This document shows, in pieces, positions 9,960-47,183 of a stretch of DNA of 64,000 nucleotides. The stretch covers positions 520-64,519 of the forward strand of contig JAFQTU010000016.1 of NCBI GenBank assembly GCA_017408905.1, read 5' to 3'. Source of the stretch: Mailhella sp. (GTDB taxonomy: Bacteria > Desulfobacterota > Desulfovibrionia > Desulfovibrionales > Desulfovibrionaceae). The position numbers and the translations under genes are program-made. A model generated the notes under the pieces. That model saw only the letters and a list, made by a program, of their open reading frames with translations. It searched no databases and had not been told where the DNA came from. Within the stretch, counting starts at the first letter, position 1; each line of letters opens with the position of its first letter.

Positions 9960-11678
9960 CTAGCTGAAGAAGTAGAGCTGACCGAGCGCCACGCTCCTGG
10001 CCGGGGGAACAGTGGCGTGCACACCGTCCACGGTAACGGCAAAGGTCTCGGGATCGACCTCCACCTTGGGCAGGAAGGCGTTACGCACCATGCAGTGCTT
10101 GGAAAGCGTGCGCATACCGCGCACGGCTTCCACACGGCTCCGAAGGCCCAGCTTCTCGCCAACGCCCAGTTCCTTGGCCGCCTGCGACACGAAGATGATG
10201 CGCCCGGTCTGCCGCCTGAGGCCGATGCCGCCGAACATGGGGCGGTAGATGACCGGCTGGGGCGTAGGCAGGGAGGCGTTGGGGTCGCCCATGACGGACC
10301 ATGCTATCATGCCGCCCTTAAGCACCATCTGGGGTTTGGCTCCGAAGAAGCGCGGATCCCAGAGCACGAGGTCGGCCACCTTGCCCTTCTCCACCGAACC
10401 GATGAGATGGGACACGCCCTGAATAATGGCCGGGTTGATGGTCACCTTGGCCACGTAGCGGAGCACGCGGAAATTGTCGTGCCTATCGCAGTCTTCCGGC
10501 AGAGGGCCGCGAGCCGCCTTCATGGCGCTGGCCGTCTGCACGGCGCGGAGCCAGTTCTCGCCCACGCGGCCCATAGCCTGCGAATCGCTGGAGAAGCAGG
10601 AGATAGCGCCCATGTCGTGCAGGACGTTCTCGGCGGCAATGGTCTCGGCCCTCACGCGGCTCTCGGCAAAGGAGACGTCCGAAGGGACATTGTGGTTCAG
10701 GTTATGGCAGACCATGATCATGTCGAAGAGCTCGGCCTGCGAATTGACGCCGAAGGGCAGGGTCGGGTTGGTGGAGCTGGGCAGGACGTTGGGGTAGGAA
10801 ACAGCCTTGATGATATCCGGGGCATGGCCGCCGCCCGCGCCTTCGGTGTGATAGGTGTGGATGACGCGGCCTTCCATAGCGGCGATGGTGTCTTCCACGT
10901 AGCCCGCTTCGTTCAGGGTATCGGTATGAATGGAGACCTGCACGTCCATCTCGTCGGCCACGGCAAGGGCATGGCGTATCATGGAAGGCATGGCGCCCCA
11001 GTCTTCATGGATCTTGAAGCCGCAGGCCCCGGCCTCTATCTGCTCGCGCAGGGGCAGGGGGGCGCTGGCATGGCCCTTGGCCAGAAGGCCCACGTTCACG
11101 GGCATGGCTTCCACGGCTTCGAGCATACGGTGTATGTTCCATTCCCCGGGGGTGATGGTCGTGCCGTTCGTGCCGTCCGTAGGGCCTACGCCGCCGCCGA
11201 AGAACGTGGTCACGCCGTTGGAAATGGCGGCCTCGCCCTGCTGGGGGGAAATGAAGTGGACGTGCGAATCGATGCCGCCGGCCGTAAGGATGAGGTGCTC
11301 GCCGGAAATGGCGTCCGTGGCGTTGCCCACTACGAGTTCCGGGCTCACGCCGTCCATGACGGCAGGATTGCCCGCCTTGCCTATGCCCGCTATCATGCCG
11401 TCGCGTATGCCCACGTCGGCCTTGATGACGCCCTGCACGGCGTCCACGATGGTCACGTTGGTGATGACGATATCCAGCACGCCGCTGTCGCGCCCGGTGC
11501 GGGAATCGCCGCCCATACCGGCGCGAAGGGTCTTGCCGCCGCCGTAGATGGACTCGTCGCCGTAGCCGCGCAGGTCCTTTTCGATTTCCACGTAAAGGTC
11601 GGTGTCGCCAAGGCGGATGCGGTCCCCCACGGTGGGGCCGAACAGCGAAGAGTATTCTTTTCTTGAGATCTGCGCCAT
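9960..11678 (-). CDS. ureC: Urease subunit alpha
   Basis: Nickel ligands are intact: [40 protein letters not shown]; flap MVCHNL. Confidence 0.99.
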
Positions 11679-41100: not shown

Positions 41101-41464
41101 CCTGCCCGTGCCGGACAAGGAAGCCGTGCTGGCCGACATCGTGGAAGACCTGACATGGTACGCCTCCCTGCCCGAAACGCCGCACTGGCTGGCCTGCGGC
41201 ACGCCCGAACACGCCATGCTGGATGCGGACGGGCGGCAGTTCCGCGTGGACCTGCTCGTCGATGACGGGCGCGAACTGGTGGCCGTGGAATACAAGACCG
41301 GTACGCCCGGCGACCTGCCCGCCCCCGCACACGTCGAACAGCTTTCCCGCTATCTGCGCCTGCTGGCCGAAGCTTCCGACCTGCCCGTGCGCGGCGTGCT
41401 CGTCTATCTCGACAGGCGCGCCCTCATCACGCTGGATTCCCCTGACGGAGCCTGCCATGCCTGA
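38174..41464 (+). CDS. addA: AddA-like UvrD helicase/nuclease
   Basis: ASAGSGKT, ITFTNKAAAEM, IDEFQDTS, VGDVKQAIY.WRG, MTMHKAKGLEF, YVAMTRA and a C-terminal RVDLL...EYKTG. Confidence 0.9.
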   Translation: MNEFRQIKASAGSGKTYTLTSSFLSLLAGASGASWKKTPSGCALPEADGAYGWQEILAITFTNKAAAEMRERVLSRLKDHALAPAGRRHGSPEQKFWTPPRAKAAVDALIRSYSALNIRTIDSLLHLMVRLCALDFDLSPDFEPRFSESDISGPVFDAMAEQARDGDDELAELFRRACEQLLRSENMRGFLAGERIRERVTGMVSLLLNADGWSLRDLATPEEAEAHLCSMVSGIEQHARELAQRLASEKLDANKRFLKALTDCAECGGSASRLPDSAYFRKESLDECLNKASKGAASLASYALYEALRDDLNEVRILVKARRLMPFAELAQAVFERLEAFERRSGLIAASQIPRLAIRAADDSDGVNSLFCRMGSRISHILIDEFQDTSRDQWFAIQPLAEEALSRSGTLTIVGDVKQAIYGWRGGDAALFDRLVKAGSPLRDLVEEPRLETLPCNWRSRERIVAWNNALFSPIGEEGTAASLLRELSEGHSALLEEQAALLHGAFVRASQSAEQCRPGGLVHLRWMDKGQENAILLQQIPDLVEKLGRSHSWGDICILTRSNEQASQAASWLMARHIPVVTQGSLRLAEQPAVAELTALLRFLNTPEDDLAFWDVLTGEHLLPPLLDAEGRPLDLRRLADWACTRPRSHSLFRQFSADFPEAWEAVFAPLHEEAGLLTPYDAAMEVLQRWNVVERLPEAEGFLRRFLEVLFSMEEQGVSDLSGFLDWWDENGDKEKAPLPESMDAVRIMTMHKAKGLEFDVVILPWMDFPLGRASDDKAVFWNSRGTGLLAPLCREMGEPWLRHRMETAREALHLAYVAMTRAVSELYCFLPSPECGPVPAMLDELLSRLHPQMKESGQTALWGEGAPAEGIHEESLPPSLPEAHAGSRRPEETTPSCREPEPSEEREEDWRPMGWLPRLRMFRSPLEDWTFTARRRGTLVHHCLECMQVSGLGRDSARRDAELAAARGLSTFPLPVPDKEAVLADIVEDLTWYASLPETPHWLACGTPEHAMLDADGRQFRVDLLVDDGRELVAVEYKTGTPGDLPAPAHVEQLSRYLRLLAEASDLPVRGVLVYLDRRALITLDSPDGACHA

Positions 41465-44400
41465 TCTTTCCCTCCTCGGTTCCGGCCACTCCCCCCGCAG
41501 GGGGCGCACCTCGCGTTCCGCCCAGCCGAAAGGGCGGCCGCCCTTCCGCATCGTCCCGTGGGACGACGATTTCCTTCTGCGCATCCACGCCCTTGCCGAT
41601 GAACTGACCGGCGGAAGGCCCGGCAAGGCCGTCATCGTGTTCCCGCTGAACCGCCCGCGCCGCTACCTTCTCGACATCTACAGGAAACATGCCGACCGGC
41701 CCACCATGCTCCCGCATATCGTGAACGCTGGCCAGCTCATCCAGCTCTGTCTGGAAAGCTGGACGCGCACCGTCCCGCGCATGGCGGGAACGCTGGATCA
41801 GGTGGCGCTGGTCAAGGAAAGCGTGCAGGCCGTGGCCTCGTCCGCGCCTGCCGGAAGCCCGCTCGCTCGTCTGGCCCGCGACCTTGAGGCCGAAGACGGC
41901 ATGGCCCGCTTCTTCCCGTGGGGCGTGCGCCTTGCCCGCCTGCTCGACGAATGTGCCGGGCACATGGTGGACGCCAGCGATCTTCTCCATGTGGAAGACA
42001 TGGTGTCCGACTACGCCGCGGCCCTTCTCGGCTCCCTGCGGAGCATCCAGGAAGACTACCGCGCCCGCATCGTGGGCAGGGGCATGAGCACGCCGGGCCT
42101 TGAATCCCAGCGGGCGGCCCTCATGGCAGGAGCTTCCCCCGACCTGCCGCTCAAGCTTCAGGGCAGAAAGGTCATCATCGCCGGTTTCGTGCGGCTCACC
42201 GCCTCGGAAGACAGGCTGTTCCGCTACCTCTGGGAACAGGGGGCCGAGATCTGCCTGCATACCGACCCGGGCATACTGGAAAATGCCGGGCACTGGAGCT
42301 GCGGAGAACATCGCGCATGGCTCAAGCGCTGGAAGGCGCACGGCCTGCTCATGGGCGAGAGCCGGAACATGGAGCAGGAGATGCACTTCTTCGCCGGGTA
42401 CGACCTCCATTCCCAGCTCCGCGAACTGCAGAAGGAGCTGGAACGCGCCCCGCACGAGGGGGAAAGCCGGGCCGTGGTCATTTCCCACGATTCCCTGCTC
42501 ATGCCTACCCTGCACCACATCCCCGAAAAAAACATCAATATCTCTCTGGGCTATCCCTTGGAGCGCTCCCTGCTGGCCCGCCTTGTGGAGCGCATCCTTC
42601 AGGTTCGGGAAAGCATGGACGGGCAGGGCCGGGTGCGCTGGAAGCCGCTCATGGACCTTATGCGGCATCCCTATGTGCGTATGCTCTGCACTGCCGGGGA
42701 GAGCGCCGACGGCACACAAAAGTTAGGCGCGCAAAACACCGGTCTCAACACTCATCCCCTTCGCCCCTTCCTCATGCACATGGAATATGCGCTGAGAAAA
42801 GGGAAGCGCATGGTCGATGCCGCCGCCCTCACGGCCGACCTGCTCGACGACGTGCTCGGCGACCTGGACAGGGAAGCCAAGGGCCTGCCGCCCCTCGACG
42901 GCGTGAACGAAACGAACGGGGCCCTGCTGGCCGATGTGGTGGATATCCTTGTCTCCCGCTGGCGCGAAGTGAAGACGCTGGGCGACCTTGCCGACAGTCT
43001 GCGCGCCCTGTGCCAGCTCCTTCTCGAGCATGGCCGCCACATCTGGCCGAATTTCCCGCTGGACGCCGAATGTCTGGCGCGCCTCATGCAGAACGTCATC
43101 CCCGAACTGGCGGACAATGCCCTGTGCCGCGAAACCCTGTCGCTGGAATCGCTGTTCTCCATCCTGCGCCAGAGCATAGCGGAACAGCGCGTCCCCTTCG
43201 AAGCGGACCCTCTCACCGGCCTGCAAATACTCGGCACGCTGGAAACGCGCCTCCTGCGCTTCGACCGCGTCTATCTGCTCGACCTTACCGAAGACGCCCT
43301 GCCCGGCTCACCGGCACGCGACCCTCTCCTGCCGGACAGCCTGCGCGATATGCTCGGCCTGCCCGACAGCGACCGGCGCGATATGCTGGCCGCGCATACC
43401 TTCCACCGCCTGCTTGCCGGTGCGAAGGAAGTCTTCCTCTACTGGCAGGAAGGCGTGCAGAGTTCCGGCGTCATGGATGCCAAGAAACAGCGTTCGCGTT
43501 TTGTGGAAGAAGCCGTCTGGCGCGTGGAACAGCGCGAAGGCAGGCGGCTTCAGGCTGGTGAAGGGCCGCTCCGCTCCGCCGCCTTCCCGGTTTCGCCGCC
43601 CCCTGCCGCAGACGAGCGCGCCATCCCGCGCACGGCGGATATCGACCGCCGCATGGAAGAACTGCTGAAAAAAACGCTCTCGCCTTCCCGGCTGGACGAG
43701 TATCTCTCCTGCCCGGTGCGCTTCTTCCACCGGTATGTCTGCTCCCTCAAGGACATGGACGACGTTCCCGAAGGCGACGATTACCCCGCCGTGGGCACGA
43801 TGCTCCACCGCGTCCTGTACCGGGCCTTCGAACCCTATCTGGGGCGCTTCCTGCACGCAGGCGACATCTCGGAAGAAAGGCTCGACGCCCTGTTCCGCGA
43901 AGAGCTTCTGGCCAGCGGCCTTTGCGACAGCCTGCCCGCGCAGAGCCGCTTCATGCTCGAAGCGGCAGGCCCGCACCGCCTGCACGATTTCCTTGCGCAT
44001 CAGCCGGAACTCACGGAAGTGCTCCAGCTCGAACAGGACAGTTCGGCCGAGCTCATGGCCGGGGAAAGGCGCTTCGTTCTGGGCGGGCAGATAGACAGAC
44101 TGGACCGCCGGGAACAGGGGCTTGTCATCCTCGACTACAAGAGCGGCCGCACCAGCAGAAGCCCGCGCCGCGAATTCTGGAACGACGAGCCCTTGTGGCA
44201 GGCCATGCGTGAATGGCAGCCGGGCATGGCCGACCCTCTGCCCGACCTTGCCGACAGCCTGCCCAGCCTTCAGCTCCCCTGCTATCTCTACATCTGCGGC
44301 CACGACCCGAAAAACGCCGCGCTCCTTCGCCTGTCCCCGCTGGCCGATGCCGCATGGGTACAGCTTGCCGACGGCGGGGAAGAGCTTTCCCTCATGGGAA

Positions 44401-44558
44401 CAGCCGTGGACGAGGAGGAACGCAGGAGCATCATAGAGGAACGCATCCCCGAACTTCTGAACTTCGTTCTGCGCCATATGGCAGAAGCCCGCGAGTTCCG
44501 CCCAAGGCGCACGCCCTCCTGCGAGCGATGCCCCTATCGGAAGACCTGCGGAAGATAG
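41457..44558 (+). CDS. addB: AddB-like PD-(D/E)XK nuclease with 4-Cys Fe-S motif
   Basis: Overlaps the addA stop. Motifs: LGTLETR, SRF, YLSCP...IDRLD...DYKSG...CERCPYRKTC. Confidence 0.85.
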   Translation: MPDLSLLGSGHSPRRGRTSRSAQPKGRPPFRIVPWDDDFLLRIHALADELTGGRPGKAVIVFPLNRPRRYLLDIYRKHADRPTMLPHIVNAGQLIQLCLESWTRTVPRMAGTLDQVALVKESVQAVASSAPAGSPLARLARDLEAEDGMARFFPWGVRLARLLDECAGHMVDASDLLHVEDMVSDYAAALLGSLRSIQEDYRARIVGRGMSTPGLESQRAALMAGASPDLPLKLQGRKVIIAGFVRLTASEDRLFRYLWEQGAEICLHTDPGILENAGHWSCGEHRAWLKRWKAHGLLMGESRNMEQEMHFFAGYDLHSQLRELQKELERAPHEGESRAVVISHDSLLMPTLHHIPEKNINISLGYPLERSLLARLVERILQVRESMDGQGRVRWKPLMDLMRHPYVRMLCTAGESADGTQKLGAQNTGLNTHPLRPFLMHMEYALRKGKRMVDAAALTADLLDDVLGDLDREAKGLPPLDGVNETNGALLADVVDILVSRWREVKTLGDLADSLRALCQLLLEHGRHIWPNFPLDAECLARLMQNVIPELADNALCRETLSLESLFSILRQSIAEQRVPFEADPLTGLQILGTLETRLLRFDRVYLLDLTEDALPGSPARDPLLPDSLRDMLGLPDSDRRDMLAAHTFHRLLAGAKEVFLYWQEGVQSSGVMDAKKQRSRFVEEAVWRVEQREGRRLQAGEGPLRSAAFPVSPPPAADERAIPRTADIDRRMEELLKKTLSPSRLDEYLSCPVRFFHRYVCSLKDMDDVPEGDDYPAVGTMLHRVLYRAFEPYLGRFLHAGDISEERLDALFREELLASGLCDSLPAQSRFMLEAAGPHRLHDFLAHQPELTEVLQLEQDSSAELMAGERRFVLGGQIDRLDRREQGLVILDYKSGRTSRSPRREFWNDEPLWQAMREWQPGMADPLPDLADSLPSLQLPCYLYICGHDPKNAALLRLSPLADAAWVQLADGGEELSLMGTAVDEEERRSIIEERIPELLNFVLRHMAEAREFRPRRTPSCERCPYRKTCGR

Positions 44559-44562
44559 CACT

Positions 44563-44600
44563 GAAGACCGCCTGCCGGATATCCAGCGGGCGGTCTTTCT
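44563..44600 (+). terminator. Intrinsic terminator after addB
   Basis: GAAGACCGCCTGCCGG-ATAT-CCAGCGGGCGGTCTTTCT. Confidence 0.75.
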
Positions 44601-45322
44601 GTATGCGCGTGCAGTGCAGGAGTGAGGAGTTCGCAGCATTCGCAGTTCGGCATGGCGGAATCTGCCGTCGTCTCCGCCGTACCTTGGCCAGAACACGCCC
44701 TTCGCGTCATGAAGAAGGGCATGGCAGGACAGAAATGGGGGCCGGACGTCATGGCGCATCCGGCTGAGGAGTTCTCCGAAAGTTCGGAGCGGGGGAAATT
44801 TTGCCAGCATGCATGGCGGGCATACTGGCAATGCGGAGGAGTTCTTCCGAAAGGGGACCTGAATCCTTCGGAAGCCTATGGCGAAAATATCATGGATCTG
44901 CAGTCCATCTCCTTCCGCATGGGCAGAGAAATTTTGCCGGACATCCAGACAAATGCCCGGCGGAAGCGCTTCCTCGGAACAAAGCGCTTGGTGGAATCAG
45001 CGGAACGCTCGGATCATCCCGCTGCTGTTATGGCGAACAAGCGAAGACTTGGTGCTTTCGGGCCGCCCTCCACTATGGAGGGCGGCCCTCGCCGCACCAG
45101 GAGACTGAGGCATGGCCTCAGCACGGAACACGGAACGCCCGTGTTCCAATACCTGCGAGAGCTGGGCTCTCGCGAAATTTTGCCGCCTGACGTCCTCCGA
45201 AGGTCGGAGTCAAGCCGTCGTCAGACGGCGGAGGGGGGAGGTCATATGTTGCCCTGGGCCTTTGCGAACACTCTGCGATTGTCAAATGAGCGGCTTCTGC
45301 GTTGGAGCTTCCCGCTCTCGTT
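44601..45322 (-). ncRNA. Candidate large structured non-coding RNA of unknown family
   Basis: About 14 hairpins, repeated motifs, G-U wobble asymmetry favouring the minus strand, and an upstream promoter-like sequence (see findings). Boundaries are approximate. Confidence 0.55.
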
Positions 45323-45328
45323 GATTTA

Positions 45329-45380
45329 GTAGTAATGAATTCTATTTTCAAAGTCAACACTTTTTTTCCTTCTCTCTAAA
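45329..45380 (-). promoter_or_regulatory. Putative sigma70 promoter firing into the hairpin-rich region
   Basis: Minus strand A-tracts, then GTG-TTGACT (45357-45352)-N17-TACTAC. The -35 and UP-like tract are good; the -10 is only a partial match. Confidence 0.45.
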
Positions 45381-45539: not shown

Positions 45540-47183
45540 ATGAAAACCAAATTTATCTTCGTCACCGGCGGTGTCCTTTCCTCTCTTGGCAAAGGCCTTG
45601 CGGTAGCCTCCCTCGGCGCTCTCCTGAAGGCTCGCGGCCTTTCCGTGACCGTGCAGAAGCTCGACCCCTACCTCAATATCGACCCTGGTACGCTGAACCC
45701 CCTCGAGCACGGTGAAGTGTTCGTTACCGACGACGGCGCCGAAGCCGACCTCGATCTCGGCCATTACGAGCGCTACCTCGACGTTTCCCTCTCCCAGCTC
45801 AACACCATCACCTCGGGCCGCATCTACTGGCGCGTTCTCAACAAGGAACGCCGCGGCGAGTACAAGGGCGGCACTATCCAGGTGATCCCCAACATCACCG
45901 ACGAGATCAAGCACACCCTGCTGCGGATAGGCGAATCGGAAAACGCCCCCGACGTTGCCCTTGTGGAAATCGGCGGCACTGTGGGCGATATCGAAGGCCT
46001 GCCCTTCCTCGAAGCCATCCGCCAGCTCCGTTCCGAGCTTGGCCGCCAGAACTGCCTGAACATCCACCTTTCCTACGTTCCCTACATCCAGGCCGCCGGC
46101 GAATACAAGACCAAGCCCACCCAGCACAGCACCAAGGCCCTCCTGGCCATCGGCATCCAGCCCGACATCATCCTCTGCCGCTGTGAAAAGCCGCTTCCTG
46201 CCGACCTCAAGAAGAAGATCGCCCTGTTCTGCAACGTGGATCAGGACGCTGTGTTCACTTCCGTGGACGTGAAGAACGTGTACGAAGTGCCGCTCAAGTT
46301 CTACGACGAAGGCCTCGACCTCAAGGTGTCCATGCTCCTCACCCTGCCTGCCCGCCGCGCCCACCTCGACGGCTGGCGCAAGCTCATGGACGACTTCGAG
46401 GAAAGCGCCAAGCGCAAGATCGTCATCGGCATCGTGGGCAAGTATGTCGAGCTCAAGGAAGCCTACAAGAGCCTGCACGAAGCCCTTGTCCATGCCGGTG
46501 TGGCCAATCTCACCAGCCTTGACCTGCGCTATATCAACTCCGAGGACATCACCGCCAAAACGGCCGACGCCCTCCTCAAGGACTGCGACGGCATCCTCGT
46601 TCCCGACGGCTTCGGCTACCGCGGCGTGGAAGGCAAGATCGAAGCCATCCGCTACGCCCGCGAAAAGAAGATCCCCTTCTTCGGCGAAAGCCTCGGCCTG
46701 CAGTGCGCCGTCATCGAATTCGCCCGCAACGTGGCCGGCCTCGACCACGCCAACTCCGCTGAATTCGCCCCCGAGAACGACCAGAACGTCATCTACACCA
46801 TGGAAGGCGTGGACTACCGCCAGAAGGCCAAGGAATTCCAGAACGAAACCAGCGACAAGAGCGCCGATTTCCGCCTTGGCGCCTATCCCTGCGTCATCGC
46901 TCCCGATACCCTCGCCGCCGCCGCGTACCAGCTCGAAGAGACCTCCGAGCGCCATCGCCACAGCTACGAGTTCAACAACGCCTTCCGCGACATTCTTGTG
47001 GAAAAGGGCCTTATCATCTCCGGCACGTCCCCTGACGGCAAGCTCGTGGAAATCGTGGAACTGGCCGACCATCCCTGGTTCCTGGCCTGCCACTTCCACC
47101 CCGAATTCAAGTCCCGCCCCATGAAGGCCCACCCCCTGCTCAAGGACTTCGTGGCCGCCGCCCTGAAGAAGTCCGGCAAGTAA
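45540..47183 (+). CDS. pyrG: CTP synthase with degenerate glutaminase domain
   Basis: [36 protein letters not shown] and HPEF are present. The catalytic GICLG motif reads GESLG. Confidence 0.95.

Follow-up and report, generated by a model that had tools for sequence, protein, structure and literature searches.

A long structured RNA of Mailhella with a Fur-box promoter and predicted pairing to a ferredoxin mRNA

Several bacteria spare iron by means of Fur-repressed small RNAs (sRNAs), among them RyhB of Escherichia coli (RF00057), PrrF1/2 of Pseudomonas, IsaR1 of Synechocystis, and FsrA of Bacillus subtilis, which is paired in that organism with Fur-regulated flavodoxins. Sulfate reducers have a metabolism unusually rich in iron-sulfur and heme proteins and matter both in the gut, through H2S production, and in corrosion. 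Our literature search turned up no Fur-controlled regulatory RNA in Desulfovibrionaceae (Desulfovibrio and Mailhella included) or other sulfate reducers. Here we describe a stretch of 64,000 nucleotides from a Mailhella sp. genome (GenBank assembly GCA_017408905.1, contig JAFQTU010000016.1, positions 520 to 64,519; "the window," with its species called the source species), the minus strand of which encodes a new structured RNA. The whole gene is ~750 nt and runs from ~45322 to 44566. Like the iron-sparing sRNAs, this RNA has a Fur box over its promoter, predicted pairing at the Shine-Dalgarno sequence and start codon of an iron-sulfur protein mRNA, and a tie to the ferredoxin-to-flavodoxin switch; as with FsrA and IsaR1, Hfq would not be needed. 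In contrast with these sRNAs, which are 70 to 150 nt long, it is 5 to 10 times longer (about eight times the size of RyhB), with ~16 conserved hairpins, and so does not resemble a small RNA (about 60 to 300 nt) with one or two seeds. It also has no sequence or structure homology to them as judged by Rfam, its predicted seed is split across a hairpin with a three-way-junction geometry, in most species it is part of a flavodoxin transcription unit, and it is confined to one genus. We favor, with moderate confidence, the reading that it is a stand-alone, Fur-repressed, iron-sparing riboregulator that represses ferredoxin and is specific to Mailhella.

Larger RNAs offer further comparisons. RNAIII of Staphylococcus aureus, a peptide-encoding RNA under quorum-sensing control, is 514 nt long with 14 hairpins and displays UCCC motifs in its loops. 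The Mailhella RNA resembles it in being large and multi-hairpin and in having C-rich, anti-Shine-Dalgarno-like sequences that occlude target ribosome-binding sites (here predicted), but its C-rich and CCAU segments are linkers between hairpins, it has no conserved open reading frame (ORF), and its control is by Fur, as its promoter predicts. It shares multiple hairpins and short repeated motifs with CsrB/RsmZ and CrcZ (CsrB has ~18 to 22 binding sites and CrcZ has 6), but it has three to four conserved modules, its GCCAU motif is not conserved, and it has no evident partner protein and no Hfq. With OLE, ROOL, GOLLD, and raiA it has in common a length of >500 nt and an ornate, lineage-restricted, covariation-supported structure; it differs from them in matching no Rfam model and in having a Fur-box context and a candidate mRNA target. 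As a new, well-supported family, it adds to the few bacterial RNAs that exceed 500 nt.

The gene occupies a 980-bp interval between an addB-like ORF (41223 to 44558, plus strand) and pyrG (45540 to 47183, plus strand), with a putative transcription start at ~45322 and its 3' end at a hairpin that it has in common with the convergent addB. The minus strand folds at -325.8 kcal/mol, a z score of -9.4 against dinucleotide shuffles, versus -3.9 for the plus strand. In the consensus structure, which was calculated with RNAalifold from an alignment of 19 species (A3) and contains 195 pairs in 28 helices, 90.7% of cells are paired, compared with 37 to 45% when the 3' partners are slid by 1 to 3 columns. 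Pairs with double changes number 86, versus 29 to 44 in the slid controls and 44.5 ± 3.9 in shuffled ones, and the observed pairing values were reached by 0 of 500 shuffles. The alignment shows about 16 predicted hairpins and two predicted long-range closing helices (45257 to 45261 with 44684 to 44689, and 45251 to 45256 with 44725 to 44730) to be maintained by compensatory substitutions. The minus strand is favored because G:U cells far exceed A:C cells when the alignment is read on that strand (343 versus 70), because the consensus energy is better (-367.7 versus -333.2 kcal/mol for the plus strand), because the loops of hairpin H13 in relatives (GAAA, GCAA, and GUAA) are GNRA loops on the minus strand only, and because the orientation of the promoter agrees with it.

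No reading frame is conserved across the RNA homologs. Pairwise insertions and deletions are not multiples of three in 297 of 323 cases (92%), and the substitutions in 12 species pairs have no codon 3-periodicity (P = 0.34 to 0.93), while the positive controls pyrG and addB gave P values of 2e-16 to 2e-19 in the same comparison. These results exclude a protein-coding gene on either strand and therefore remove the 235-amino-acid plus-strand ORF from consideration. A cmscan search of Rfam 15 gave no match at gathering scores and nothing meaningful at an E value of ≤10; this includes the models for OLE, ROOL, GOLLD, HEARO, raiA, RNase P, tmRNA, and 6S RNA as well as those for RyhB (RF00057), PrrF, FsrA, IsaR1, NrrF, and ArrF. 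A divergent RNase P, 6S, or tmRNA is also ruled out, as the genome carries all three elsewhere. The locus is single copy in the 1.96-Mb Mailhella genome, and each relative has one locus (split BLAST matches and opposite-strand echoes were counted as one). It thus lacks the many copies per genome of repetitive extragenic palindromic (REP) elements or miniature inverted-repeat transposable elements (MITEs); a tandem or dispersed repeat or a mobile element is ruled out by this single copy, and no tandem array was present beyond a 15-nt CACGGAA repeat. A search of the rest of the source genome for long antisense complementarity gave only chance-level matches of ≤16 nt.

The sequence-only reading of this region had proposed an undescribed structured RNA of ~720 nt folded from the minus strand, and this part of it is borne out in length, strand, excess stability, novelty against Rfam, compensatory changes in homologs from the genus, and lack of a protein-level constraint. 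The hairpins that it named (numbered here H1 to H6, H8, and H12) are all present where it placed them, and the TTGACT that it saw pointing into the region lies at 45357 to 45352 on the minus strand. The perfect 13-bp stem that it described (H5) is conserved, although the surrounding TGGTGC/GCACCA helix turned out to be specific to the source species.

Transcripts of the locus are present in assembled gut metatranscriptomes. In contigs from four runs, positions 44590 to 45314 are covered at a word depth of 10 to 45, while addB and pyrG are at 0 to 8; for comparison, the part of RNase P RNA that is specific to the species has a depth of ~40 to 1,560 in these runs (380 to 1,400 in most X26 to X28 bins). 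Expression is therefore above that of the neighboring mRNAs and below that of the most abundant RNAs.

The region upstream of the RNA contains the following elements.
45352 to 45357, minus strand: -35 hexamer TTGACT; TTGACA/T is at the same place in all relatives
45335 to 45351, minus strand: Fur box TTGAAAATAGAATTCAT, which is also the 17-nt promoter spacer and matches 13 of the 16 specified positions of WTGAAAATNATTTTCAW
45341 to 45357, minus strand: second, overlapping Fur box, shifted by 6 bp and beginning at the -35 hexamer
45329 to 45334, minus strand: putative, weak -10 hexamer TACTAC, 17 nt after the -35 hexamer; TAGTGT in relatives

The consensus WTGAAAATNATTTTCAW is the delta-proteobacterial Fur box derived by Rodionov et al. 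(PMC545781), who also found that Desulfovibrio typically has two Fur boxes overlapping with a 6-bp shift and predicted flavodoxin to be Fur regulated in that genus. The source promoter reads TTGACT, TTGAAAATAGAATTCAT, and TACTAC without interruption (45357 to 45329, minus strand), and a typical relative has TTGACA, TTGAAATTCGTTTTCAT, and TAGTGT. When the 450 nt upstream of the RNA were searched, all 22 loci had TTGACA/T followed directly by a box matching 13 to 15 of the 16 positions (14 to 15 in the relatives), each with an overlapping box at +6 bp and most with a TA-initial hexamer after the box. In the source genome, which has two Fur-family genes, only 25 sites match at ≥13 of 16 positions and 7 at ≥14 of 16; these 7 include a site 216 nt upstream of feoA. 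A start ~7 nt after the -10 hexamer (~45322) fits the contig edge at 45314. Based on these matches, the Fur-box promoter very probably drives the RNA. The boxes lie 66 to 230 nt upstream of the conserved leader of the RNA; the leader itself (TTGAAAAT…) was considered as a Fur box and rejected, since it looks like a half-site by eye and matches at best 11 of 16 positions in one species. By inspection, sigma-28 and sigma-54 motifs in the RNA leader or flavodoxin leader were also rejected for wrong spacing or lack of conservation.

In 14 species, the order of genes is an alaX-like gene, the RNA, and flavodoxin, all on one strand. At these loci (L009, for example) a long GC-rich hairpin (GCCCCCGGA…UCUCCGGGGGC) with a U-run lies ~110 nt before the flavodoxin start and ends ~15 nt before the flavodoxin ribosome-binding site. 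This flavodoxin-proximal hairpin could be a terminator or attenuator that chooses between free RNA and RNA-flavodoxin read-through. No Fur box was found between the RNA and flavodoxin in the linked species, apart from one 12/16 match in one species, and the Fur promoter of the RNA is therefore the only candidate for iron control of the linked flavodoxin. The RNA lies instead beside addB in the source species, G001, G006, G023, G005, G027, and G032 (G numbers are our handles for Mailhella genomes). In G005 and G027, flavodoxin is at another locus under a TTGACA-plus-Fur-box promoter of its own, and the source genome (97.8% complete) has no flavodoxin ortholog. Retention of the RNA as a gene of its own in species whose flavodoxin is unlinked or lost speaks for action in trans. 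In Mailhella genomes that lack this RNA, Fur boxes (13 to 15 of 16 positions) lie 160 to 290 nt upstream of flavodoxin, and from this arrangement the RNA looks like an elaboration of a Fur-controlled flavodoxin leader.

The candidate target was found from the single strands that flank hairpin H6, which in most relatives read 5'-GCCCAUAACAGC-[H6]-GCCUCCA-3'; conserved linkers of this kind resemble complements of CCUCC-type Shine-Dalgarno sequences and of the start codon (CAU). The parts of this site in the source species are as follows.
45024 to 45037, minus strand: segment X, UUCGCCAUAACAGC, complementary to the ferredoxin mRNA from the spacer through the AUG to codon 2; its CCAU is present in 19 of 19 species
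44998 to 45024, minus strand: hairpin H6 (helix 14, 5 double-change pairs), whose loop GAUCCGAGCG is conserved; the predicted pairing site is split and spans this hairpin
44988 to 44997, minus strand: segment Y, AUUCCACCAA; GCCUCCA in most relatives, the complement of UGGAGGC in the Shine-Dalgarno region of ferredoxin

A search of the source genome for the complement gave one exact match of 16 to 17 nt, UGGAGGCUGUUAUGGGC (contig C11, position 13833), which covers the translation start of a 2×[4Fe-4S] ferredoxin from the Shine-Dalgarno sequence through the spacer and AUG to the second codon. The chance expectation for this match is <1e-3, a rough estimate that allows for generic Shine-Dalgarno and AUG content. 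About 20 RNA-bearing species have the same ferredoxin initiation region. Segment X forms a duplex of at least 10 bp (10 to 13 bp) with the ferredoxin mRNA of its own species in 14 of 18 species; it is 8 to 9 bp in G002, G016, and G031, and in G001, which is outside the 14, it is 10 bp by eye. The Y duplexes are 5 to 9 bp long, with 7 to 9 bp in 13 of 18 species and 5 bp in the source species. Where the mRNA differs, the RNA differs with it: G005 has GUUGUCAUGGGA in the mRNA and UCCCAUGGCGGC in the RNA (C:G to A:U and U:A to C:G plus three wobble-compatible changes), and G032 has AUGAGC in the mRNA and GCUCAU in the RNA (one double change, G:C to A:U), which makes three compensatory double changes in two lineages. 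In G030, CUCCAC of the RNA is opposite GUGGAG of the mRNA. The ferredoxin spacers of RNA-less Mailhella are different (GGAGGAGAAU, GGAGGACAAA, and GGAGGAAAUC). Segment X is predicted to be largely unpaired (mean P(unpaired), 0.45 to 0.82), and in five species RNAduplex loops out H6 and uses both X and Y. At the level of sequence, then, the RNA would pair with the translation-initiation region of an iron-protein mRNA, and we regard repression of ferredoxin translation through the split X/Y site as rather probable.

If so, the circuit could operate as follows. When iron is plentiful, Fur-Fe(II) on the promoter box would block transcription of the RNA, and when iron is scarce, the RNA would be made. 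In the 14 linked species, flavodoxin, which is directly downstream behind a putative leaky terminator and lacks a Fur box of its own, would be cotranscribed with it. Through the single strands flanking H6, the RNA would pair with the ribosome-binding region of the 2×[4Fe-4S] ferredoxin mRNA, X covering the spacer, AUG, and codon 2 and Y covering the Shine-Dalgarno sequence. Ferredoxin translation would then be blocked, so that iron-free flavodoxin would replace iron-rich ferredoxin. The other modules (the stem-GGC-AAAAUUU units, the CCUCC and poly-C tracts, and a second CCAUA…CUCCUCC module) probably serve further targets or partners. With Fur box, RNA, ferredoxin, and flavodoxin, the locus provides a circuit concrete enough to test, and its RNA exceeds known iron-sparing sRNAs by a wide margin in size and in degree of structure. 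If true, it would carry the principle of iron-sparing riboregulation into a new phylum and would exemplify both a 5'-leader-derived RNA turned independent gene and a natural split, hairpin-bridged seed that works without Hfq.

A number of observations weigh against this reading. In the source species the ferredoxin pairing is limited to 10 bp, and Y has a central mismatch. RNAduplex energies at the ferredoxin site are only ~1.5 to 3.5 standard deviations better than those of shuffled initiation regions, and equally good or better scores were obtained in seven species for another site that lies partly within H4. The correlation between presence of the RNA and the CUGUU spacer may be due to phylogeny alone. 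A generic sigma-70 consensus scan called no promoter in the source species, because the -10 hexamer TACTAC lacks the final T. The metatranscriptome data are unstranded contigs that may contain DNA, which bears on strand, ends, and iron response, and the abundance of the RNA is modest, roughly 10 to 100 times below that of RNase P RNA in the same runs. Finally, a seed of 12 to 17 nt leaves ~750 nt of conserved, ornate structure unexplained, and the main function could therefore lie elsewhere.

One such function is that of a protein sponge or scaffold. The sequence-only reading had proposed an RNA that displays GCCAU loops, and its motif counts are exact and exceed those of 1,000 dinucleotide shuffles (CCAU, 11 versus 3.8 ± 1.7; GCCAU, 7 versus 1.2; CGCCAU, 5 versus 0.4; GGCAAAAUUUC and GAACUCCUC, 3 versus 0 each). 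However, the GCCAU excess is largely specific to the source species: conservation in at least 16 of 19 species is limited to 2 of the 11 CCAU sites (A3 column 318, 19 of 19; column 515, 16 of 19), and the relatives carry 4 to 6 CCAU in total. The many conserved, unpaired motif copies of a sponge RNA are thus not found for GCCAU, and the best-conserved CCAU lies instead in the single-stranded linker predicted to pair with the ferredoxin AUG. This part of the sequence-only reading is not supported. The reading had also overlooked two features that indicate a base-pairing regulator responsive to iron, namely, the promoter Fur box and, in relatives, the link to flavodoxin. A more plausible version is that four GC-clamped hairpin-AAAAUUU modules each bind one copy of an RNA-binding protein, titrating or assembling it. 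Three hairpin-GGC-AAAWUUU modules are in fact conserved in 15 to 16 of 19 species and a fourth, weaker one is present; a weak match of the 3' half of the RNA to the 5'-domain covariance model suggests an internal duplication; and a large, ornate structure is typical of ribonucleoprotein RNAs. Protein binding could also coexist with base-pairing regulation. Yet a sponge would be expected to have more than three or four sites, neither type of synteny links an RNA-binding protein gene to the RNA, Hfq is absent from the genome, and a sponge or scaffold leaves the Fur box, the flavodoxin linkage, and the compensated ferredoxin complementarity unexplained. We consider it unlikely in either version, though the stem-GGC-AAAAUUU modules may bind protein on a small scale.

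The position of the RNA between the sole Fur-box promoter and flavodoxin in 14 species, together with the hairpin and U-run just before the flavodoxin ribosome-binding site, is what would be expected of a purely cis-acting 5' leader that acts as an attenuator or sensor of terminator read-through. At least eight species, however, have no flavodoxin after the RNA (the source species, G001, G006, G023, G005, G027, G030, and G032), the source genome keeps the RNA structure and Fur-box promoter although it has no flavodoxin ortholog, and the RNA of the source species extends into the 3' end of addB, which converges on it. A role confined to cis is thus quite improbable. A functional product of the plus strand, whether the ORF at 44622 to 45329 or an RNA with Shine-Dalgarno- and AUG-like decoys, can be given hardly any weight: the plus strand also folds better than its shuffles, and long open frames occur in several relatives, as a G+C content of 61% would lead one to expect, but the frame, indel, and periodicity results oppose a protein, the G:U excess and a consensus energy that is worse by 34 kcal/mol oppose a plus-strand RNA, and the GNRA loops, promoter, and Fur box all face the other way.

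A broader form of the riboregulator is one that we advance only tentatively. In this form, the RNA would represent a new class of Hfq-independent master riboregulators, controlling the iron-sparing response in a gut lineage of sulfate/sulfite reducers. It would be a prefolded scaffold of ~750 nt with several hairpin-bridged split seeds, and each seed would have its own iron-protein mRNA, whose Shine-Dalgarno sequence and start codon it would clamp in a three-way junction. The first mRNA so controlled would be that of ferredoxin, and others would fall to the CCUCC and poly-C tracts and the second CCAUA-[H11]-CUCCUCC module. The RNA would have been elaborated from the 5' leader of a Fur-controlled flavodoxin gene and would have gained its independence afterwards. 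CUCCU is conserved at four sites (in 19, 19, 14, and 15 of 19 species), and two C-runs are conserved as well. Hfq was not found in the source genome (97.8% complete) and was rejected as a chaperone. For the second split module (UUCGCCAUA-[H11]-CUCCUCC), no convincing target was found; the dsrA start (AUGGCGAAA) was rejected, as its 9-nt match is at chance level, and G-rich targets for the poly-C tract were rejected because matches were nonspecific. GC-rich and species-specific loops dominated a genome-wide RNAduplex ranking of initiation regions against the unpaired segments, which was uninformative; the ferredoxin ORF, located at the end of a contig, was too short to pass its length filter. 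The initiation region AGGAGACUGUUAUGAGC of a hybrid-cluster protein gene (MSQMFCFQCEQT…, C60:13662) has CUGUUAUG in common with the ferredoxin site, and its mRNA is a possible weaker second target of segment X, with an 8-nt match at chance level.

The remaining parts of the RNA are listed below in 5'-to-3' order; helix numbers are those of the RNAalifold consensus.
45262 to 45285, minus strand: conserved 5' leader UUGACAAUCGCAGAGUGUUCGCAA, invariant columns in alignments A1 and A3
45251 to 45261, minus strand: 5' strands of the closing helices (helices 2 and 3, paired 86 to 87%; 2 double-change pairs)
45230 to 45243, minus strand: C-rich, anti-Shine-Dalgarno-like tract GACCUCCCCCCUCC, with a C-run of ≥6 in 15 of 19 species; unpaired in the consensus fold
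45182 to 45229, minus strand: H1, branched hairpin GCC…GGC (helices 4 to 6, paired 91 to 98%; 8 double-change pairs)
45174 to 45181, minus strand: linker AAAAUUUC after H1, kept in 16 of 19 species
45155 to 45173, 45125 to 45147, and 45105 to 45122, minus strand: H2, H3, and H4 (helices 7 to 9, paired 89 to 98%; 16 double-change pairs)
45089 to 45104, minus strand: single strand UCUCCUGGUGCGGCGA, invariant columns in 19 to 20 species; it has two alternative long-range pairings, neither with covariation
45060 to 45088, minus strand: H5, perfect 13-bp hairpin (helices 12 and 13, paired 99% and 89%; 6 double-change pairs)
44966 to 44987, 44936 to 44961, 44909 to 44927, and 44892 to 44908, minus strand: H7, H8, H9, and H10 (helices 15 to 18; 12 double-change pairs)
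44928 to 44935, minus strand: linker AAAAUUUC after H8
44830 to 44891, minus strand: second split module, X2 GAUAUUUUCGCCAUAG, H11 (44844 to 44875; 6 double-change pairs), and Y2 AACUCCUCCGCAUU, with CCAU in 16 of 19 species and CUCCU in 19 of 19
44803 to 44829, 44795 to 44802, and 44774 to 44789, minus strand: H12, linker AAAAUUUC, and H13 (helices 21 and 22, paired 95 to 97%; 12 double-change pairs)
44649 to 44764, minus strand: conserved tail with H14 (44741 to 44764), the 3' strands of the closing helices, H15 (44697 to 44720), and H16 (44649 to 44682); helices 23 to 27 have 15 double-change pairs
44566 to 44595, minus strand: hairpin in common with addB, from its sequence the probable 3' end or terminator of the RNA in the source species; the U-run after it is poor on this strand, and metatranscriptome RNA contigs end at 44590 to 44592 in two runs

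The genomes compared are gut and rumen metagenome-assembled genomes of Mailhella, including M. massiliensis. BLASTN detected homologs in 22 of 33 other Mailhella genomes and in 0 of 27 genomes outside the genus, and a covariance model of the 5' domain (R1, 194 positions) raised the presence of the RNA to 24 of 34 Mailhella genomes. The same model gave no true match in 71 other genera of Desulfovibrionaceae or in 255 genera of the phylum Desulfobacterota. Seven Mailhella genomes clearly lack the RNA (G007, G015, G017, G019, G022, G026, and G033), and three others are incomplete assemblies (G010, G018, and G028, in the last of which the flavodoxin gene begins at a contig edge). The RNA-less seven carry the most divergent ferredoxins of the genus (60 to 72% identity), and this divergence, rather than a tree, hints that they may be a separate sublineage. 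The BLAST matches span only a core of ~490 nt (44796 to 45286), but in an anchored alignment the tail from 44601 to 44795 is also conserved, in the order H14, UUUCUGUCCUGC, H15, CUCCUGGUCGUGC, H16, and an A-run, so that the conserved length from the leader to H16 is ~700 to 760 nt. Individual RNAs vary in length. That of G025 (L017) has a 136-nt insertion between H5 and segment X and that of G023 has a 31-nt insertion near H7, and these two sites are tolerated variable regions. In the divergent RNAs of G032 (L046) and G030 (L047), the 5'-domain model match spans 272 to 276 nt rather than 194, and there is an extra structured insert of ~80 nt after H1.

Two further loci came out of these searches. 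The window matches the Rfam family 5_ureB_sRNA (RF02514) at 11228 to 11528 on the plus strand, with 65.9 bits versus a gathering score of 40; since this family is antisense to ureB in Helicobacter, the match probably just marks the urease ureB coding region. The sole perfect (16/16) Fur box of the genome (ATGAAAATCATTTTCAA, G000:C48:4277) has no convincing ORF on either side and for this reason may mark a second Fur-controlled noncoding locus.

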